Positions 1,549-40,666 of a stretch of DNA of 40,666 bases are shown in pieces; the first letter of the stretch is position 1, and each line of letters starts with the position of its first letter. Both the position numbers and the translations under genes were made by a program. Source of the DNA: a virus (Duplodnaviria > Heunggongvirae > Uroviricota > Caudoviricetes); the IMG/VR virus record IMGVR_UViG_2563366836_000013, positions 1 through 40,666 of that record; one strand, written 5' to 3'. The notes beneath the pieces are model-generated. The model was not told the DNA's origin. It made no database searches and saw nothing but the letters and a program-made list of their open reading frames with translations.

Positions 1549-1680
1549 GTTGAAGCCTGCTTTTTTATACTAAGTTGGCATTATAAAAAAGCATTGCTTA
1601 TCAATTTGTTGCAACGAACAGGTCACTATCAGTCAAAATAAAATCATTATTTGATTTCAATTTTGTCCCACTCCCTGCCT
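1549..1680. other. Prophage attL (B-O-P'): 15-bp core 1559-1573 plus lambda-like P' arm
   Basis: Core GCTTTTTTATACTAA followed by GTTGGCATTATAAAAAAGCATTGCTTATCAATTTGTTGCAACGAACAGGTCACTATCAGTCAAAATAAAATCATTATTTGATTTC, matching the lambda attP P' arm as recalled; preceded by host B arm ...GAAGCCTGC. Confidence 0.9.
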
Positions 1681-2717
1681 CTGTCATCACGATACTGTGA
1701 TGCCATGGTGTCCGACTTATGCCCGAGAAGATGTTGAGCAAACTTATCGCTTATCTGCTTCTCATAGAGTCTTGCAGACAAACTGCGCAACTCGTGAAAG
1801 GTAGGCGGATCCCCTTCGAAGGAAAGACCTGATGCTTTTCGTGCGCGCATAAAATACCTTGATACTGTGCCGGATGAAAGCGGTTCGCGACGAGTAGATG
1901 CAATTATGGTTTCTCCGCCAAGAATCTCTTTGCATTTATCAAGTGTTTCCTTCATTGATATTCCGAGAGCATCAACATGCAATGCTGTTGGGATGGCAAT
2001 TTTTACGCCTGTTTTGCTTTGCTCGACATAAAGATATCCATCTACGATATCAGACCACTTCATTTCGCATAAATCACCAACTCGCTGCCCGGTAACAACA
2101 GCCAGTTCCATTGCAAGTCTAAGCCAACATGGTGATGATTCTGCTGCTTGATAAATTTTCAGGTATTCGTCAGCCGTAAGTCTTGATCTCCTTACCTCTG
2201 ATTTTGCTGCGCGAGTGGCAGCGACCGGGTTTGTTGTTATATGGCCTTCAGCTATTGCCTCTCGGAATGCATCGCTCAGTGTTGATCTGATTAACTTGGC
2301 TGACGCCGCCTTGCCCTCGTCTATGTATCCATTGAGCATTGCTGCAATTTCTTTTGTGGTGATGTCTTCAAGTGGAACATCAGGTAGCCCCCTCCTTATT
2401 GCTTTAATTTTGCTCATGTAATTTATAAGTGTCTTCTGCTTGATTCCTCTGCTGGCGAGGATTTTTTCGTAGCGATCAAGCCATGAATGTAACGTAACAG
2501 AATTATCACTGTTGATTCTCGCTGTCAGAGGCTTGTGTTTGTGTCCTGAAAATAACTCAATGTTTGCCTGTATTGCTTCAGTAATTGCTATCCTCCTGTC
2601 TCTGCCTAATCCGAACTCTTTACCCGTCCTTGGGTCCCTGTAGCAGTAATATCCATTGTTTCTTATATAAAGGTTAGGGGGTAAATCCCGGCGCTCATGA
2701 CTTCGCCTTCTTCCCAT
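1647..2717 (-). CDS. int: Lambda-type tyrosine integrase Int
   Basis: 356 aa, MGRRRSHERRDLPPNLYIRNNGYYCYRDPRTGKEFGLG... essentially identical to lambda Int as recalled; adjacent to P' arm. Confidence 0.97.
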   Translation of the reverse strand: MGRRRSHERRDLPPNLYIRNNGYYCYRDPRTGKEFGLGRDRRIAITEAIQANIELFSGHKHKPLTARINSDNSVTLHSWLDRYEKILASRGIKQKTLINYMSKIKAIRRGLPDVPLEDITTKEIAAMLNGYIDEGKAASAKLIRSTLSDAFREAIAEGHITTNPVAATRAAKSEVRRSRLTADEYLKIYQAAESSPCWLRLAMELAVVTGQRVGDLCEMKWSDIVDGYLYVEQSKTGVKIAIPTALHVDALGISMKETLDKCKEILGGETIIASTRREPLSSGTVSRYFMRARKASGLSFEGDPPTFHELRSLSARLYEKQISDKFAQHLLGHKSDTMASQYRDDRGREWDKIEIK

Positions 2718-2913
2718 TTCTGATCCTCTTCAAAAGGCTACCTGTTACTGGTCGATTTAAGTCAACCTTTACCGCTGATTCGTGGAACAGATACTCTCTT
2801 CCATCCTTAACCGGAGGAGGGAATATCCTGCATTCGCGCACCCATCGACGAACTGTTTCAAGGCTTCTTGGGCGTCGCTGGCGAGCGTTCCACTCCTGAA
2901 GTGTCAAGTACAT
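2695..2913 (-). CDS. xis: Excisionase Xis (lambda-type)
   Basis: 72 aa MYLTLQEWNARQRRPRSLETVRRWVRECRIFPPPVKDGREYLFHESAVKVDLNRPVTGSLLKRIRNGKKAKS; overlaps int start as in lambda. The ORF-track 102-aa version is a 5' over-extension. Confidence 0.93.
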   Translation of the reverse strand: MYLTLQEWNARQRRPRSLETVRRWVRECRIFPPPVKDGREYLFHESAVKVDLNRPVTGSLLKRIRNGKKAKS

Positions 2914-3027
2914 CGCAAAGTCTCCGCAATTACACGCAAGAAAAAGCCGCATTGATGCGGCGATGGTAGGTCTGGATATCATTGAGCAATGAACAGGCCT
3001 CATCGAGTGTGAGGCTGTATGGCTCCA

Positions 3028-35356: not shown

Positions 35357-36289
35357 ATGCATCGTATAGACACGAAAACCGCGCAGAAGGATAAGTTCGG
35401 CGCGGGTAAGAACGGTTTTACCCGTGGTAACCCCCAGACCGGCACACCTGCCACCGATCTGGATGATGACTACTTTGACATGTTGCAGGAAGAACTTTGT
35501 AGCGTGGTGGAGGCCTCCGGTGCCAGCCTGGAGAAGGAGCGGCACGACCAGTTGCTTACCGCGCTTCGTGCGCTGCTGTTAAGCCGCAAGAATCCGTTTG
35601 GTGATATCAAATCGGATGGCACGGTGAAAACGGCTCTCGAAAACCTTGGTTTGGGAGATGGCTCGGGGCGTTACAGCAAAACTGTCGTTTTTTCATCGTC
35701 GGGTTCATATACGTGGCCAGCTGACGTAAAACGAATTGACGTTATTCTGACTGCGGGGGGCGGCGGTGGCGGTGGATGTAACGCGGAGAACGCAAATCAG
35801 ACATTTTCAGGGGCTGGCGGAGGAGCCGGAGGTACTGTTTTTGCCACTATTTATGCGACAGACAACGATGCCGGGCCAGGAACCTATACAGTGACAATTG
35901 GCAGCGGTGGTAGTGGTGCCAATGGGGCAGGGTCTGGAAATAATGGCGGTAATAGTTCGTTCATGACATTAACTGCGCTCGGCGGCCAGGGTGGGCAATG
36001 GGGCGGCGCTACAAATACCGCTGGCGGGCGCGGTGGCTCAGGCTCTGGCGGTTATAAAACTGAACAAGGCGGAGACGGTTCAGACGGACAGGCGGGCCAG
36101 GCGCTATTAGTAGGCAATGGGGCATCGAGCTATTGGGGTGGCGGCGGCCGCGCTGGGCAACTGAGCGGTAATCCTGGAGTTTGCTCTGGCTCCGGCGGCG
36201 GGGGTGCATACGATAATAGCTATTCACACACGTCAGGACGTGGCGGGCACGGAGCTAATGGCGTGCTGGTAATTCGGGAGTACATGTAA
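35357..36289 (+). CDS. Tail fiber protein (conserved N-terminal anchor plus Gly-rich distal domain)
   Basis: 310 aa; N-terminus [22 protein letters not shown] resembles the shared side-tail-fiber N-domain; C-terminal half is Gly-rich low complexity. Confidence 0.75.
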
Positions 36290-36694
36290 ATGAATGATGT
36301 CTATGCAGTTGTTGATAATAACGTTGTTATTAATGTCATTATCTGGGACGGAATTTCTGAATGGAAACCAGAGGCTGGTAATTTAGTTCCGTTAAACGGC
36401 GATGCTGGCATCGGTTGGTCATATTCAGACGGAGTATTTACCGCGCCACCTCCCCCAGAACGCTCTCACAACGCGTTAGTTGCGGAGGCTGAGCTGCAGA
36501 AATCAGCACTACTGACCGTAGCAAATAACGCAATAGCACCGCTGCAGGATGCCGTTGATTTGGAAATGGCGACAGACGATGAACAGACGTTACTGCTGGC
36601 GTGGAAAAAATACAGGGTACTGCTGAACCGTGTTGATACCTCAGCGGCACCCGAAATAGAGTGGCCTACGCAACCGGGGGAGCGGGCCAGTTGA
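36290..36694 (+). CDS. Tail fiber assembly protein (Tfa)
   Basis: 134 aa, [21 protein letters not shown] ... APEIEWPT typical Tfa; TAAATG coupling to fiber gene. Confidence 0.8.
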
Positions 36695-36815
36695 TATCAG
36701 GCGCAGCGTCAGCATCAACTGCTGTCACTGCGTCGATGTAGTCGAGTACCGCATTCAGCCGCGTTTTTTCATCATCAGTCAGTTTGCGGCCTGCACTTCT
36801 CCGTTGGCATCTTTG
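36666..36815 (-). pseudogene. Remnant of an alternative tail fiber assembly gene (tfa') in inverted orientation
   Basis: Minus frame reads ...[39 protein letters not shown], a Tfa C-terminus, with no start and an in-frame stop at 36816-36818; its 3' end overlaps the 3' end of the intact tfa. Confidence 0.5.
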
Positions 36816-36992
36816 TTATATGGTACAACTGCGCAGAGGCCTGTCTCTTCAATTGTGCCAGTTGAATACTACGATACAACGCTCGGCCTTCCTGTTTGGT
36901 GGAACATAACCACATCCACATGGAAAAGAGCTGATGGTGCAGATGTATAATTCTGGTGCCGCGCATGCGGCACCAATAAAAAACATATTAAA

Positions 36993-38468
36993 CTAAAGTG
37001 AATCTATTCCATTTTTCCAAATAAGAACTTTTTTGTCTTGTATTTTATGAGTGCTATCAGGCTGCCCAAACTGTTTTATGGCCTTTTCCTCTTGCTCTAC
37101 ATCATCAGCAATTAAAAAATTAGCTCCTTTTTGGTACCATTCTTTTTTTGATAACCAATTATATGGTGTGAATCTATCACCATACGACTCAAATGGAGCT
37201 ACGTTGATATCACTAAATCCAGCAACAGATGATGCAAACCAAAATGATGCATAACCTCTTTGTAGTTTATTTTTTATTAAGAAATCTCTTAATTCTATTG
37301 TAATATCATTTTTATTAACAATGTTTTTTGTTGTTGCCATCGTTGGCAACGATAACGCAATAACGATTAATGATATTAGTAAATTTGTCTTCACTGGTAA
37401 GGAGAAAGAATTTCTAGCAATCACAATTGACATGAAAATAAACGTTGGGACTATGTATCTAATTGAGAAAAGATTTGTTGGCCTGTCACTTGAAACATAG
37501 GCAATCAACATGACTAATGATGATACAATAAGAACCTGGTCAATAAAATCAATTTCTTTAAATTTAAGAATGTTTTTATAAGATAAAAATAAGAATACAA
37601 AAATGAAAAACACCTTTATCATGGTGAATAATGAGTTAAAGCTACCTATCTCCATTCCAAACGCGTACCCACCAAAAAATTTGAATACGCCCATGATAAC
37701 AAGAGATATGTTGCTTGTTATTTGTTGAAACTCTACTATGTGAGGTTTGGTTATGCCTGGCAGGTTAAATCCACCAAGCTTAATGAATATAAATGATATG
37801 AGCTCAGCAATAAATATAGATGATATAGTGAAAACCAACAATAACAAATCATTAGTATTCAACGAATCTCTTTTCATTAGAGAAGCATACATTCTATATA
37901 TGCAAACAAAAACTATAGGTATTATAAAGGCATATTTAGATATATCATCACTAAAAACAAGCAACGATAACATAAATACATATGGAAAAAGTAATTTTAA
38001 ATCATTTTTCTTTCTGTATCTATCTATTATTAGTATGATCGCCAGCATGTAAATGTACGCACCAATATGTATACATGCTATAAGCATTATACTTGATGAG
38101 AAAACCGTTGGAATTCCAAATACAGAAAGAACAGGCCATAACGATGCCCTGCTTTTAGTATGAGAGATATATAGCGATAGTGTTACTAACATAGACATGA
38201 AAATTCCAGGCACAATATAGTACAGATTTTCATTAAATCCTATTATTTTTATCGCTATAGCATATGGTATTATTTCTGTGAAATAGAATGATACAGTTGA
38301 TAAATCCCACCCACTGAGAAAAATATTTCCTTCAGTAATATCCCTTGCCTCTCTGAATGAAGACATGACATCTGAGTTTGGAATTATGTTTTTAGCAATC
38401 ATTGAGTAAATTATTGATAATACAATAAATGTTGCCAGCCAATATAAAAGCTCAAGCTTCTTGCTCAT
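36993..38468 (-). CDS. GtrC-type serotype-specific O-antigen glucosyltransferase (polytopic membrane protein)
   Basis: 491 aa, very AT-rich, many TM helices, immediately downstream of gtrA-gtrB (ATGA-coupled). Confidence 0.8.
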
Positions 38469-39382
38469 TTTTTACCCTTAAGTACATACTTTGGACGCTG
38501 CTTAACTTCAATGTAAATTCTACCAATATACTCACCGAGCACTCCAATCCCAATTAACTGGATGCCGCCAAGAAATAATATTGATACAAGAATTGAAGGG
38601 TATCCAGGTACATTATTACCAAAAATTAATTTATCAATTATCATCCATGAACCGTATGTAAATGATATACATGCAATAAATAACCCAATATAGGTCCACA
38701 TGCGAAGCGGGAATGTTGAGAAGCTAGTGATCCCTTCCAGCGCCAAGTTCCATAGCTTCCATCCATTGAACTTTGTGCTTCCTGCAACGCGTTCTGCTCG
38801 CGCATATTCTACGACATCGGTTCGACCACCAACCCAGCTCAGCACACCCTTCATAAACAGGTTTCGTTCTGGCATGAGCTTAATGTTTTCTACTACTTCG
38901 CGAGACATGAGCCGGAAGTCGCCAACATTCTCTTCTATCTGAGGGTTGCTGATTTTGTTATGAAGTTTATAGAACCACTCAGCAGATTTACGCTTCAGCC
39001 TGCTGTCAGTGGAGCGGTCAGAGCGTTTAGCCAGAACCATATCTGCACCGGCCTGCCATTTCTCTATCAAGTGAGGAATAACTTCGATAGGGTCTTGCAG
39101 ATCAACGTCAATCGGGATAATTGCCTCCCCGGTAGCATGGTCCAGACCTGCGAACAGGGCGGGTTCTTTGCCGAAGTTACGTGTGAACGACAGCGAAACA
39201 ACAAGCGGGTCGGCAACAGCAAGCTCGTTGATAATTGATTCTGTAGCGTCTTTGCTGCCATCGTTTATGAAGACTATCTCGACTTCATGCTGCTGAAGCC
39301 CTTCAAATTCGCGCACAGTTTTATAAAAAATAGGTATCGTGGCCTCTTCGTTAAAGACCGGAACGACTAAAGAAATTTTCAT
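38465..39382 (-). CDS. gtrB: GtrB bactoprenol glucosyltransferase (GT2 family)
   Basis: 305 aa, [13 protein letters not shown]...FINDGSKD...DVDLQDP GT2 motifs and C-terminal TM helices. Confidence 0.92.
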
Positions 39383-39741
39383 TTCGCATCCCTAAAGACA
39401 ATGAACTTTGAATAGACGAAACCGCACACCAGGCTGATGGCGGAGAAGGTGACAAGAGTTATCATCGGGGGAAGTGCGCATCTATCAGCAGCCCATCCAA
39501 CAGTAGCACTGAGTGTTCCCATGAACCCGACATATAACATGTAGCGCATCGTTGTAGTTGATGCTTTGAATGTGAATTTTGCATTCGCGAAGAAGCTAAA
39601 ACTCACAGCCACAACGAAACCTGCGAAGTTTGCCAGAGCCTGATTGGTATGCGCGGCATAGATACATACACCAAAAACCACCCAGTGTATAAGTGTGTTC
39701 AGCACACCAATCGAGGTGTACCTTGCAAATATATTTAACAT
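39379..39741 (-). CDS. gtrA: GtrA flippase (bactoprenol-linked glucose translocase)
   Basis: 120 aa, four TM helices, GtrA-like; first gene of operon. Confidence 0.9.
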
Positions 39742-39895
39742 TTATTTAATCAATGAGTTCTGAAAGGTATGAAGTCTATCATCCAAGTCTCAATCGATCG
39801 ATACTTGCGGTAGTTGATGAGGAAAACTCTGGTACACAAAGCTTTGCACTGGACTGCAAGGTGTTGTGCTTCTCTGGAGTGCGATATGTTTGATG

Positions 39896-39939
39896 ACAAA
39901 AAATTAGCGCAAGAGGACAAAAAATCACCTTGCGCTAAT
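39896..39939 (-). terminator. Minus-strand rho-independent terminator upstream of the gtr promoter region
   Basis: 10-bp perfect inverted repeat TTAGCGCAAG / CTTGCGCTAA; on the minus strand the hairpin is followed by TTTTTTGT. Confidence 0.45.
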
Positions 39940-40110
39940 GCTCTGTCTCAGGTCACTAATACCATCTAAGTAGTTGATTCATAGTGACTGGATATGTTGT
40001 GTTTTGTAGTATCATGCAGTCTATTTTTTAGACTAAATGTATTTTAACGCATTGATATTATTGGCTTTTACTGTTTTGCGTTCAGCTTTTTTATACTAAC
40101 TTGAGCGAAA
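39925..40110. other. Prophage attR (P-O-B'): lambda-like P arm, 15-bp core 40085-40099, host B' arm
   Basis: ...GGTCACTAATACCATCTAAGTAGTTGATTCATAGTGACTG... P-arm-like sequence, core GCTTTTTTATACTAA, then CTTGAGCGAAACGGGAAGG (host B' arm as recalled). Confidence 0.88.
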
Positions 40111-40189
40111 CGGGAAGGTAAAAAGACAAAAAGTTGTTTTTAATACCTTTAAGTGATACCAGATGGCATAGCGCCATCTGGCAGAGTGA

Positions 40190-40666
40190 TTAACTAAACA
40201 TCGCAGTAATCGAGGCGCTTGCCAGAGAATGGAAATGGACGTTAAACCCGACCATCGCGCCGCTGGCACCTTCATCGACATCAATACGTTCTACATCCAG
40301 CGCGTGAACGGTAAAAATGTAGCGATGGGTTTCGCCTTTCGGCGGCGCTGCACCATCGTACCCGGTTTTACCAAAGTCGGTACGCGTCTGCAAAACGCCG
40401 TCTGGCATTGCTACCAGACCAGAGCCAAACCCTTGCGGTAATACGCGGGTATCAGCGGGTAAATTAACAACTACCCAGTGCCACCAGCCGGAGCCGGTTG
40501 GCGCATCCGGGTCGTAGCAGGTGACAACAAAACTTTTCGTTCCCGCAGGAACATCATCCCACGCCAGATGCGGTGAAACATTATCGCCATCGTAACCCAT
40601 GCCGTTAAAGACATGACGATGTGGCAACTTATCGCCATCGCGCAGATCATTACTGATGAGTTTCAT
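40190..40666 (-). CDS. ybhB: YbhB (PEBP / UPF0098 family protein), host gene flanking attB lambda
   Basis: 158 aa MKLISNDLRDGDKLPHRHVFNGMGYDGDN...; start codon at the window edge. Confidence 0.85.
   Translation of the reverse strand: MKLISNDLRDGDKLPHRHVFNGMGYDGDNVSPHLAWDDVPAGTKSFVVTCYDPDAPTGSGWWHWVVVNLPADTRVLPQGFGSGLVAMPDGVLQTRTDFGKTGYDGAAPPKGETHRYIFTVHALDVERIDVDEGASGAMVGFNVHFHSLASASITAMFS

Follow-up and report, generated by a model that had tools for sequence, protein, structure and literature searches.

A prophage gtrABC operon corresponding to the published O44 glucosylation locus of Escherichia coli 042

In Escherichia coli, a single gene cluster is common to the serogroups O17, O44, O73, O77 and O106, which differ by the Glc side branches carried on a common backbone, ->6)Man(a1-2)Man(a1-2)Man(b1-3)GlcNAc(a1-> (2019 review, PMC7685785). 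For O44, a 2023 study that cites Wang et al. 2007 (PMC10304059) attributes the addition of the glucose to a backbone mannose to GtrB, GtrA and "WbbG". The same study maps the prophage with the O44 genes between ybhB and ybhC, and it describes both a single Glc side branch for O44 and an O77-group O-antigen cluster that is near-identical across the group and therefore cannot account for that branch. The genome paper of strain 042 (Chaudhuri 2010, PMC2808357) maps prophage 042p1 (ROD15) to 877116..917926 with a 15-bp direct repeat at its bounds, describes its structural half as SfV-like, and lists in its Table 2 "gtrAB and Ec042-0853" (914835..917583) as the sole gtr cargo. The 2019 review regards the O44 assignment as "confirmed ... 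by finding an appropriate prophage", that is, in silico only, and we found no report of a knock-out, expression or biochemical assay of the 042-type gtrC in the searchable literature.

Two further groups of gtr systems are close to the one described here. The gtrABC operons of the Shigella flexneri phages SfV, SfII, SfI, SfIV and SfX are likewise made up of three components at one end of the prophage, with int-xis at the opposite end near attL; according to the literature their acceptor is a rhamnose backbone, in contrast to the mannan-type backbone at issue here. The P22-type and chromosomal gtr operons of Salmonella follow the same logic, with conserved gtrAB and a variable gtrC, and the study describing them reports Dam/OxyR-dependent phase variation for eight of ten gtr families (Davies et al. 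2013, PMC3688519).

A gtrABC operon at the right end of a prophage

The window, by which we mean the whole 40,666-nucleotide stretch of viral DNA analysed (IMG/VR record IMGVR_UViG_2563366836_000013), contains the exact 15-bp lambda att core at two positions, against a chance expectation of 0.08 matches. Taken together with ybhC, int and xis on the left and ybhB on the right, these cores delimit a prophage of 38.5 kb that occupies the lambda attachment site, flanked by ybhC and ybhB. The features relevant to the analysis are as follows.

229-1512: ybhC-like gene with a Pectinesterase domain, left flank of attL
1559..1573, plus strand: attL core GCTTTTTTATACTAA, exact match; left end of the prophage, beside ybhC
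1647..2717, minus strand: lambda-type integrase, 356 aa (Pfam Phage_integrase 2.9e-40, Arm-DNA-bind_1 7.1e-33)
2695..3003, minus strand: excisionase (Pfam Exc 1.2e-40)
35357..36694, plus strand: tail fibre and tail-fibre assembly gene (Gly_rich_2 6.7e-19, Caudo_TAP 1e-32)
36666..36791, minus strand: inverted remnant of a second tail-fibre-assembly gene (RefSeq pseudogene of strain 042, mapped by constant offset)
36893..38464, minus strand: AT-rich, swappable gtrC cassette, replaced wholesale in sister prophages, with a GC profile that agrees
36955..36974, minus strand: GC-rich hairpin GGTGCCGC-ATGC-GCGGCACC, 19 nt past the gtrC stop, read from the sequence
36993..38468, minus strand: gtrC (Ec042-0853, "wbbG"), 491 aa, predicted GT-C-fold membrane glycosyltransferase, the serotype-specific component
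38465..39382, minus strand: gtrB, 305 aa, GT2 bactoprenol-phosphate glucosyltransferase (PF00535, Glycos_transf_2, 2.8e-30)
39379..39741, minus strand: gtrA, 120 aa, small membrane protein (Pfam PF04138, GtrA_DPMS_TM, 2e-13, full length)
39742..40084, minus strand: non-coding region between attR and gtrA, presumed to hold the promoter, with a single GATC at 39796
40085..40099, plus strand: attR core GCTTTTTTATACTAA, exact match; right end of the prophage
40190-40666: ybhB, right flank of attR (PBP domain, 2e-42)

The tail fibre and its assembly gene are the final structural genes ahead of the gtr cargo, and the positions of the att cores leave 344 bp between the start of gtrA and attR. With virion genes that are 97% identical to those of SfII, SfI, SfIV and SfV, the Shigella serotype-converting myophages, the prophage bears out the remark in a first-pass annotation of this DNA that the operon adjoins attR as it does in Shigella-type converting phages. 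Once excised and circularised, the genome would run xis-int-attP-gtrA-gtrB-gtrC, with one direction throughout and int reading across attP towards gtrA, an arrangement known from the Sf phages.

The three genes lie head-to-tail with 4-bp ATGA overlaps. In addition to their Pfam domains, GtrA and GtrB match the PHROGs families "GtrA-like O-antigen conversion" (2.7e-69) and "GtrB-like O-antigen conversion" (6.6e-166), and GtrB also matches an ArnC-type model (1.2e-51), ArnC being its analogue in the ArnT system. At the DNA level gtrAB is about 80% identical to its counterparts in SfV, SfII, SfI and SfIV and about 75% identical to that of P22. Four hallmarks of a three-component Gtr system are present, namely a GtrA-family protein, a GT2 GtrB, a variable polytopic third gene and a packed operon on the att side, and the first-pass description of a gtrABC-type operon with conserved GtrA and GtrB stands. 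It was equally right about the 491-aa GtrC being AT-rich and strongly hydrophobic: the protein is polytopic, and the GC content of its gene is 0.308 (GC3 0.278), as compared with 0.441 for gtrB, 0.455 for gtrA and 0.518 for the remaining prophage. None of the inactivating lesions in GtrC that would have spoken against this annotation was found, all three ORFs being intact in every copy examined, non-cognate hosts included.

Correspondence with the O44 locus and association with the O77-group backbone

Of 5426 complete E. coli genomes, 12 contain the entire 3.5 kb around the operon, among them that of the enteroaggregative strain 042 (O44:H18), where the match lies at record positions 914542-918042; the coordinates published for that strain (PMC2808357) agree with the RefSeq features underlying it. 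Over the 4.7 kb compared with 042p1 the DNA is 99.5% identical, and the gtrA-gtrB-Ec042-0853 locus of 042 has the same genes, order and ybhC/ybhB integration site. GtrA and GtrB do not differ at all from their 042 counterparts, and GtrC matches at 488 of its 491 residues, the three substitutions (I89V, M93I and L223I) being conservative and all within hydrophobic helices. The host strain is a different one: SCU-105 and SW070912 match the window at 100% over the 3.5 kb used as query. Judged by its sequence, the operon is the locus already published as the O44 serotype determinant, assigned between 2007 and 2010, and is in that sense ordinary.

From what is known of the family and from the literature, GtrB would form undecaprenyl-phosphate-glucose from UDP-glucose at the cytoplasmic face of the inner membrane, and GtrA, the proposed Und-P-glucose translocase, would move the lipid-linked glucose moiety to the periplasmic face. 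GtrC (Ec042-0853/WbbG) would then attach the glucose to one of the mannoses in the O77-type backbone (Man-Man-Man-GlcNAc), giving serogroup O44. In our view the data are best explained by such three-component periplasmic glucosylation of an O77-type backbone, carried out by the cargo of a temperate, SfV-like myophage integrated at the lambda att site, an explanation that we hold with a confidence of roughly 0.8. The genes, their arrangement and integrity, the prophage setting, the near-identity to 042, the predicted fold with its conserved residues and the link to the O77-group cluster come from the present analysis, whereas the three reactions, the sugar that accepts the glucose and whatever change in phage adsorption or immune recognition may follow are drawn from the family and the literature.

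The first-pass annotation had instead suggested that GtrC probably has a novel specificity, meaning a new acceptor or linkage and a new serotype. In favour of this reading, GtrC has no match in Pfam (E<=0.01), NCBIfam or PADLOC, is labelled "hypothetical protein" in RefSeq, finds no counterpart by tblastn among 50,697 phage records, and comes from a strain that is not 042. Nevertheless, GtrC differs from the protein of an O44:H18 strain by the three conservative substitutions alone, the host lineage has the same O77-group backbone cluster, and the assignment of the 042 gene to O44 dates from 2007-2010. We thus regard a new specificity as highly improbable, and this part of the annotation is unsupported because the locus is the published module for O44 side-branch glucosylation.

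The distribution of the gene is in line with the O44 reading. Overall, 94 of the 5426 complete genomes carry the O17/O44/O73/O77/O106 wzy, as do 10 of the 12 records with a window-type gtrC (042, PCP06238, MZ1211, GN05505, FDAARGOS_1288, LP-26-E1-261 and its duplicate record, SCU-105, SW070912 and SCU-482), an enrichment that is not an independent-sample statistic because the carriers are partly clonal and one strain is represented by two records. The SCU-482 assembly has many frameshifts. For LP-26-E1-261, the published serotypes are in-silico "O77g" calls only (PMC13248637) and so do not validate a prediction of O44. With a chimeric query, the O77-group wzy was absent from the two other carriers, ET650 and 300081. 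The former has an O148-family cluster truncated by IS1 and the latter an O9-family polymannan cluster with wzm/wzt/wbdA; carriage therefore does not always imply O44.

These two strains also bear on the possibility that the cassette is silent, has no usable acceptor in its host, or glucosylates a target other than the O antigen, such as ECA, capsule or core. Its presence in ET650, with an IS1-truncated O-antigen cluster, and in an O9 strain indicates that carriage is not strictly tied to a cognate backbone, and the region upstream of gtrA has no recognisable sigma-70 promoter, a promoter/terminator scan having found no minus-strand promoter-like site there at its threshold. Against this, the ORFs are intact even in the non-cognate hosts and carriage is strongly enriched in O77-group genomes. 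Moreover, the O77-group cluster cannot explain the single Glc branch of O44 (PMC10304059), and this operon is the only gtr cargo listed for 042 (PMC2808357). A silent or redirected cassette is therefore unlikely in our view, and glucosylation of the O77-type backbone to give O44 remains the preferred reading.

Other regulatory signals around the operon are few. The phase-variation signature of the Salmonella operons, as described by Broadbent, Davies and colleagues, is reported to be a cluster, ahead of gtrA, of four GATC sites that lie in paired OxyR half-sites. In contrast, the window has a single GATC (39796) in the 344 bp between gtrA and attR, so the Salmonella-type Dam/OxyR signature is absent there. 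A search of positions 36000-40666 with Rfam found no family. The hairpin past gtrC is unique in the window and lacks a U-tract; the terminator scan did not call it, and it is a possible transcript end.

The GtrC protein and its exchangeable slot

ArnT, the Und-P-L-Ara4N:lipid A transferase, is only 7% identical to GtrC in sequence and differs from it in both donor and acceptor, and a sequence-profile search of PDB chains found no relative of GtrC (one spurious match, E 0.64) and hence no solved structure within its family. The AlphaFold model, built on an alignment of 16 homologues, is confident (pLDDT 86.4, pTM 0.87), and its membrane domain can be superimposed on solved GT-C enzymes, in agreement with Foldseek. 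We therefore predict from the model that GtrC has a GT-C fold of the ArnT/PglB/PMT class. Combining the model helices with hydropathy and loop charges, the topology is predicted to be N-in, with about 11 membrane helices and a C-terminal alpha/beta domain of about 100 residues in the periplasm.

Conservation within the family fits the predicted fold. Among 55 members with identities down to 21%, Asp33 (D33) is invariant and S32, G47, N48, W54, H134, D174, R337 and Y338 are at least 90% conserved; by the map of helices and charges these residues lie either in the first loop after TM1, as D33 does, or at the predicted periplasmic ends of helices. D33 fits the pattern of GT-C enzymes, whose first external loop contains an essential acidic residue, and we infer that it may be catalytic. 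D174, H134 and R337/Y338 are, along with D33, candidate catalytic residues.

The family is much larger than a simple search suggests. A word-indexed search returned only 18 relatives, whereas an exhaustive profile search reaching Proteobacteria, Firmicutes and Chloroflexi yielded 4418 representatives with E<=1e-3, 764 of them with E<=1e-30, most of the matches being full-length. PHROGs matches to GtrC are confined to "unknown function" families and its C-terminal part, and ten distant representatives likewise have no Pfam match; this large unnamed family with an invariant Asp33 appears to be new here. In the Enterobacteriaceae a member always follows directly after gtrA-gtrB (Salmonella Carrau, an E. 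coli paralogue, Enterobacter, Serratia and a P22-like prophage). The Pseudomonas oryzihabitans group has a GtrB homologue 4 kb from its member, and the distant members from Firmicutes and Chloroflexi lack gtrAB within 5 kb. A 33%-identical paralogue (P0013) sits beside the tailspike gene of the P22-like prophage, and a 40%-identical E. coli paralogue (P0003) likewise lies at ybhB; its gene is absent from the complete-genome collection. An apparent 5' DNA similarity to the P0003 gene had raised the idea of a mosaic gtrC, which was rejected: the protein N-termini are not near-identical, so the similarity reflects an extension of the BLAST alignment through the conserved first loop. Serovars Carrau and Florida, both O:6,14 under the Kauffmann-White scheme, are among the members of the Salmonella homologue cluster. 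Within the enterobacterial branch, E. coli O77-group strains account for at least three paralogues, the Salmonella O:6,14 serovars for further relatives and an O9 polymannan strain for one copy.

The gene itself occupies an exchangeable position. In the sister prophage of GN06156 the flanks are 98.5-99% identical to the window and nothing aligns across 36893-38464, so that the breakpoints fall at the gtrB/gtrC junction and 100 bp beyond the gtrC stop. The replacement gene carries PF14264 (Glucos_trans_II, 1.1e-26), has the same GC content of 0.308, and encodes a protein with no detectable similarity to the window GtrC by BLASTP (E>1); a PF14264-type gene also occupies the slot in the O17 reference strain K12a. 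PF14264 is the domain of the S. flexneri-type third gene, whereas the window GtrC does not match that model. Since the cassette is AT-rich and its breakpoints bound gtrC, the first-pass view that GtrC was acquired independently is well founded. We conclude from these alignments that the gtrC slot is an exchangeable cassette, an exchange that we believe is described here for the first time. As a separate observation, gtrC alleles seem to partition the O77 serogroup complex.

The O44-type cassette has also travelled further. ET650 carries it inside a P2-like prophage, between the tail-fibre assembly and tail sheath genes, where the att core and about 40 bp from the ybhB side have come with it. 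In 300081 the cassette comes after a long tail-fibre gene of a prophage and adjoins a tRNA-like 3' end, in what we read as a lambdoid-type, non-SfV prophage. The inverted tail-fibre-assembly remnant accompanies the cassette in both strains, as it does in the window.

Possible selective value and implications for the O77 serogroup complex

The mobility of the cassette raises the question of what it is selected for. One reasonable possibility, suggested by analogy and in line with the defence module proposed in the first-pass annotation, is that the selected function is phage defence, in which masking of the receptor would block superinfection by O-antigen-dependent phages and serotype conversion would be a by-product. 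Such receptor masking is familiar from P22 and the Shigella Sf phages, which have their gtr operons at the corresponding position in the genome, and the occurrence of the cassette in at least three prophage backbones suggests a general benefit to phages. On the other hand, PADLOC models gave no match for GtrA, GtrB or GtrC, and other benefits have been proposed, including reduced uptake by amoebae (PMC10304059) and immune evasion. We therefore see defence as a serious possibility that falls somewhat short of even odds, and one that would complement the O44 glucosylation mechanism rather than replace it.

In itself, the finding is of little weight, as a published serotype-conversion module has been re-discovered. 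What it adds is modest and consists of the assignment of a GT-C family fold to GtrC, the cassette exchange, and the apparent partitioning of the O77 complex by gtrC alleles. Given that GtrC is still a "hypothetical protein" with no family model, the fold assignment and the candidate residues should be useful for annotation. A broader and more tentative idea, which we would sooner doubt than accept at this stage, is that there is an enterobacterial branch of GtrC specialised for mannose-rich backbones and that its alleles, together with the PF14264-type gene that exchanges into the same slot, split O17, O44, O73, O77 and O106. According to the literature, the side-branch glycosyltransferases of O73 have not yet been identified. 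Because they have one O-antigen gene cluster in common, these five serogroups are indistinguishable by wzx/wzy sequences (PMC13188871), and the group includes the ST69 Shiga-toxin lineage behind a 2025 HUS outbreak. The gtrC allele is a sequence feature that should distinguish O44, and if the broader idea is true, typing of gtrC would tell apart the members of a serogroup complex that are at present beyond the reach of genoserotyping.

Family membership and doubtful records

The proteins related to the window GtrC (P0019-P0166) form a large family, with 4418 representatives recovered by profile search and 764 of them at E<=1e-30. For the 10 representatives sampled, Pfam gave no match, and no solved structure exists for any member; some of the Salmonella proteins carry the UniRef name 'Glycosyltransferase RgtA/B/C/D-like domain-containing protein'. 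A 40%-identical GtrC paralogue, P0003, is encoded by an E. coli prophage (L004) that likewise lies at ybhB. Its locus has a transposase gene that is missing from a second copy of the P0003-type locus (L006):

L004:7577-8035, Y1 (IS200/IS605-type) transposase gene, just downstream of gtrC

Two of the records compared call for caution. One (L014, JAEXAX010000025.1) is a 4.5-kb contig in a 'Bacillota bacterium' MAG that carries gtrA, gtrB and a family member. Its GtrA and GtrB share 95-96% protein identity with E. coli proteins, and the contig is most likely enterobacterial and mis-binned. The other is strain SCU-482 (L057, NZ_CP053247.1), which has frameshift annotations in each of manC, manB, wzy and wzx of the O-antigen cluster, and indels relative to the window in its gtr region; these lesions seem to be errors of long-read assembly and not biological changes.

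The O44-type cassette in other prophages

The O44-type cassette, the gtrABC genes of the window, is also found in other prophage settings, and in three of three contexts it is accompanied by a tail-fibre-assembly pseudogene. In the window this remnant is flanked by the functional tfa gene and gtrC, and it may provide the homology through which the cassette transfers.

window 36666-36791, (-) strand, tail-fibre-assembly pseudogene, inverted and N-terminally truncated
L058:4001-7600 (ET650, NZ_CP100936.1), O44-type gtrABC cassette, 99.3% identical
L059 (300081, NZ_CM128587.1) and L063, O44-type cassette after a long prophage tail-fibre gene

The ET650 cassette lies within a P2-like prophage, between a tail-fibre assembly gene and a tail sheath gene, and was apparently picked up from a prophage of the att-lambda site, since the lambda att core and ~40 bp of ybhB-side flank came with it. 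In this host, an IS1 element truncates an O148-family O-antigen cluster. Beside the cassette of 300081 are a 3' end resembling that of a tRNA and a pair of AAA-ATPase and S8-peptidase genes, and the host O-antigen cluster encodes an O9-family polymannan. Since O9 polymannan, like the O77 backbone, has alpha-1,2-linked mannose, the O44-type GtrC might find an acceptor there.

Alternative gtrC genes, many in O77-group hosts

The identical att-lambda prophage slot holds a PF14264-type (Shigella-type) gtrC in 35 complete genomes, among them the O17:H18 reference strain K12a. Loci of this gene, and one of a P0013-type paralogue in another setting, are:

L008:1797-3284 (GN06156), PF14264-type gtrC, slot equal to window 36893-38464
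NZ_CM144236.1 1558640-1560127, PF14264-type gtrC of O17 reference strain K12a
L064:5001-6467, P0013-type gene in a P22-like prophage, adjoining the tailspike

Most of the carriers cross-checked belong to the O77 group (O17/O44/O73/O77/O106), and with K12a included the PF14264-type protein is therefore a candidate for the O17 side-branch glucosyltransferase. The P0013-type paralogue, 33% identical to the window GtrC and of the same Pfam-less family, occurs in 25 complete E. coli genomes, and the O77 group accounts for at least 19 of these; the window gtrC allele is absent from all 25. One strain, 2018-05-2CC (AP027877), carries both the P0013-type paralogue and the PF14264 type, a pair that would be consistent with a serogroup bearing two glucoses, for example O73 or O106.
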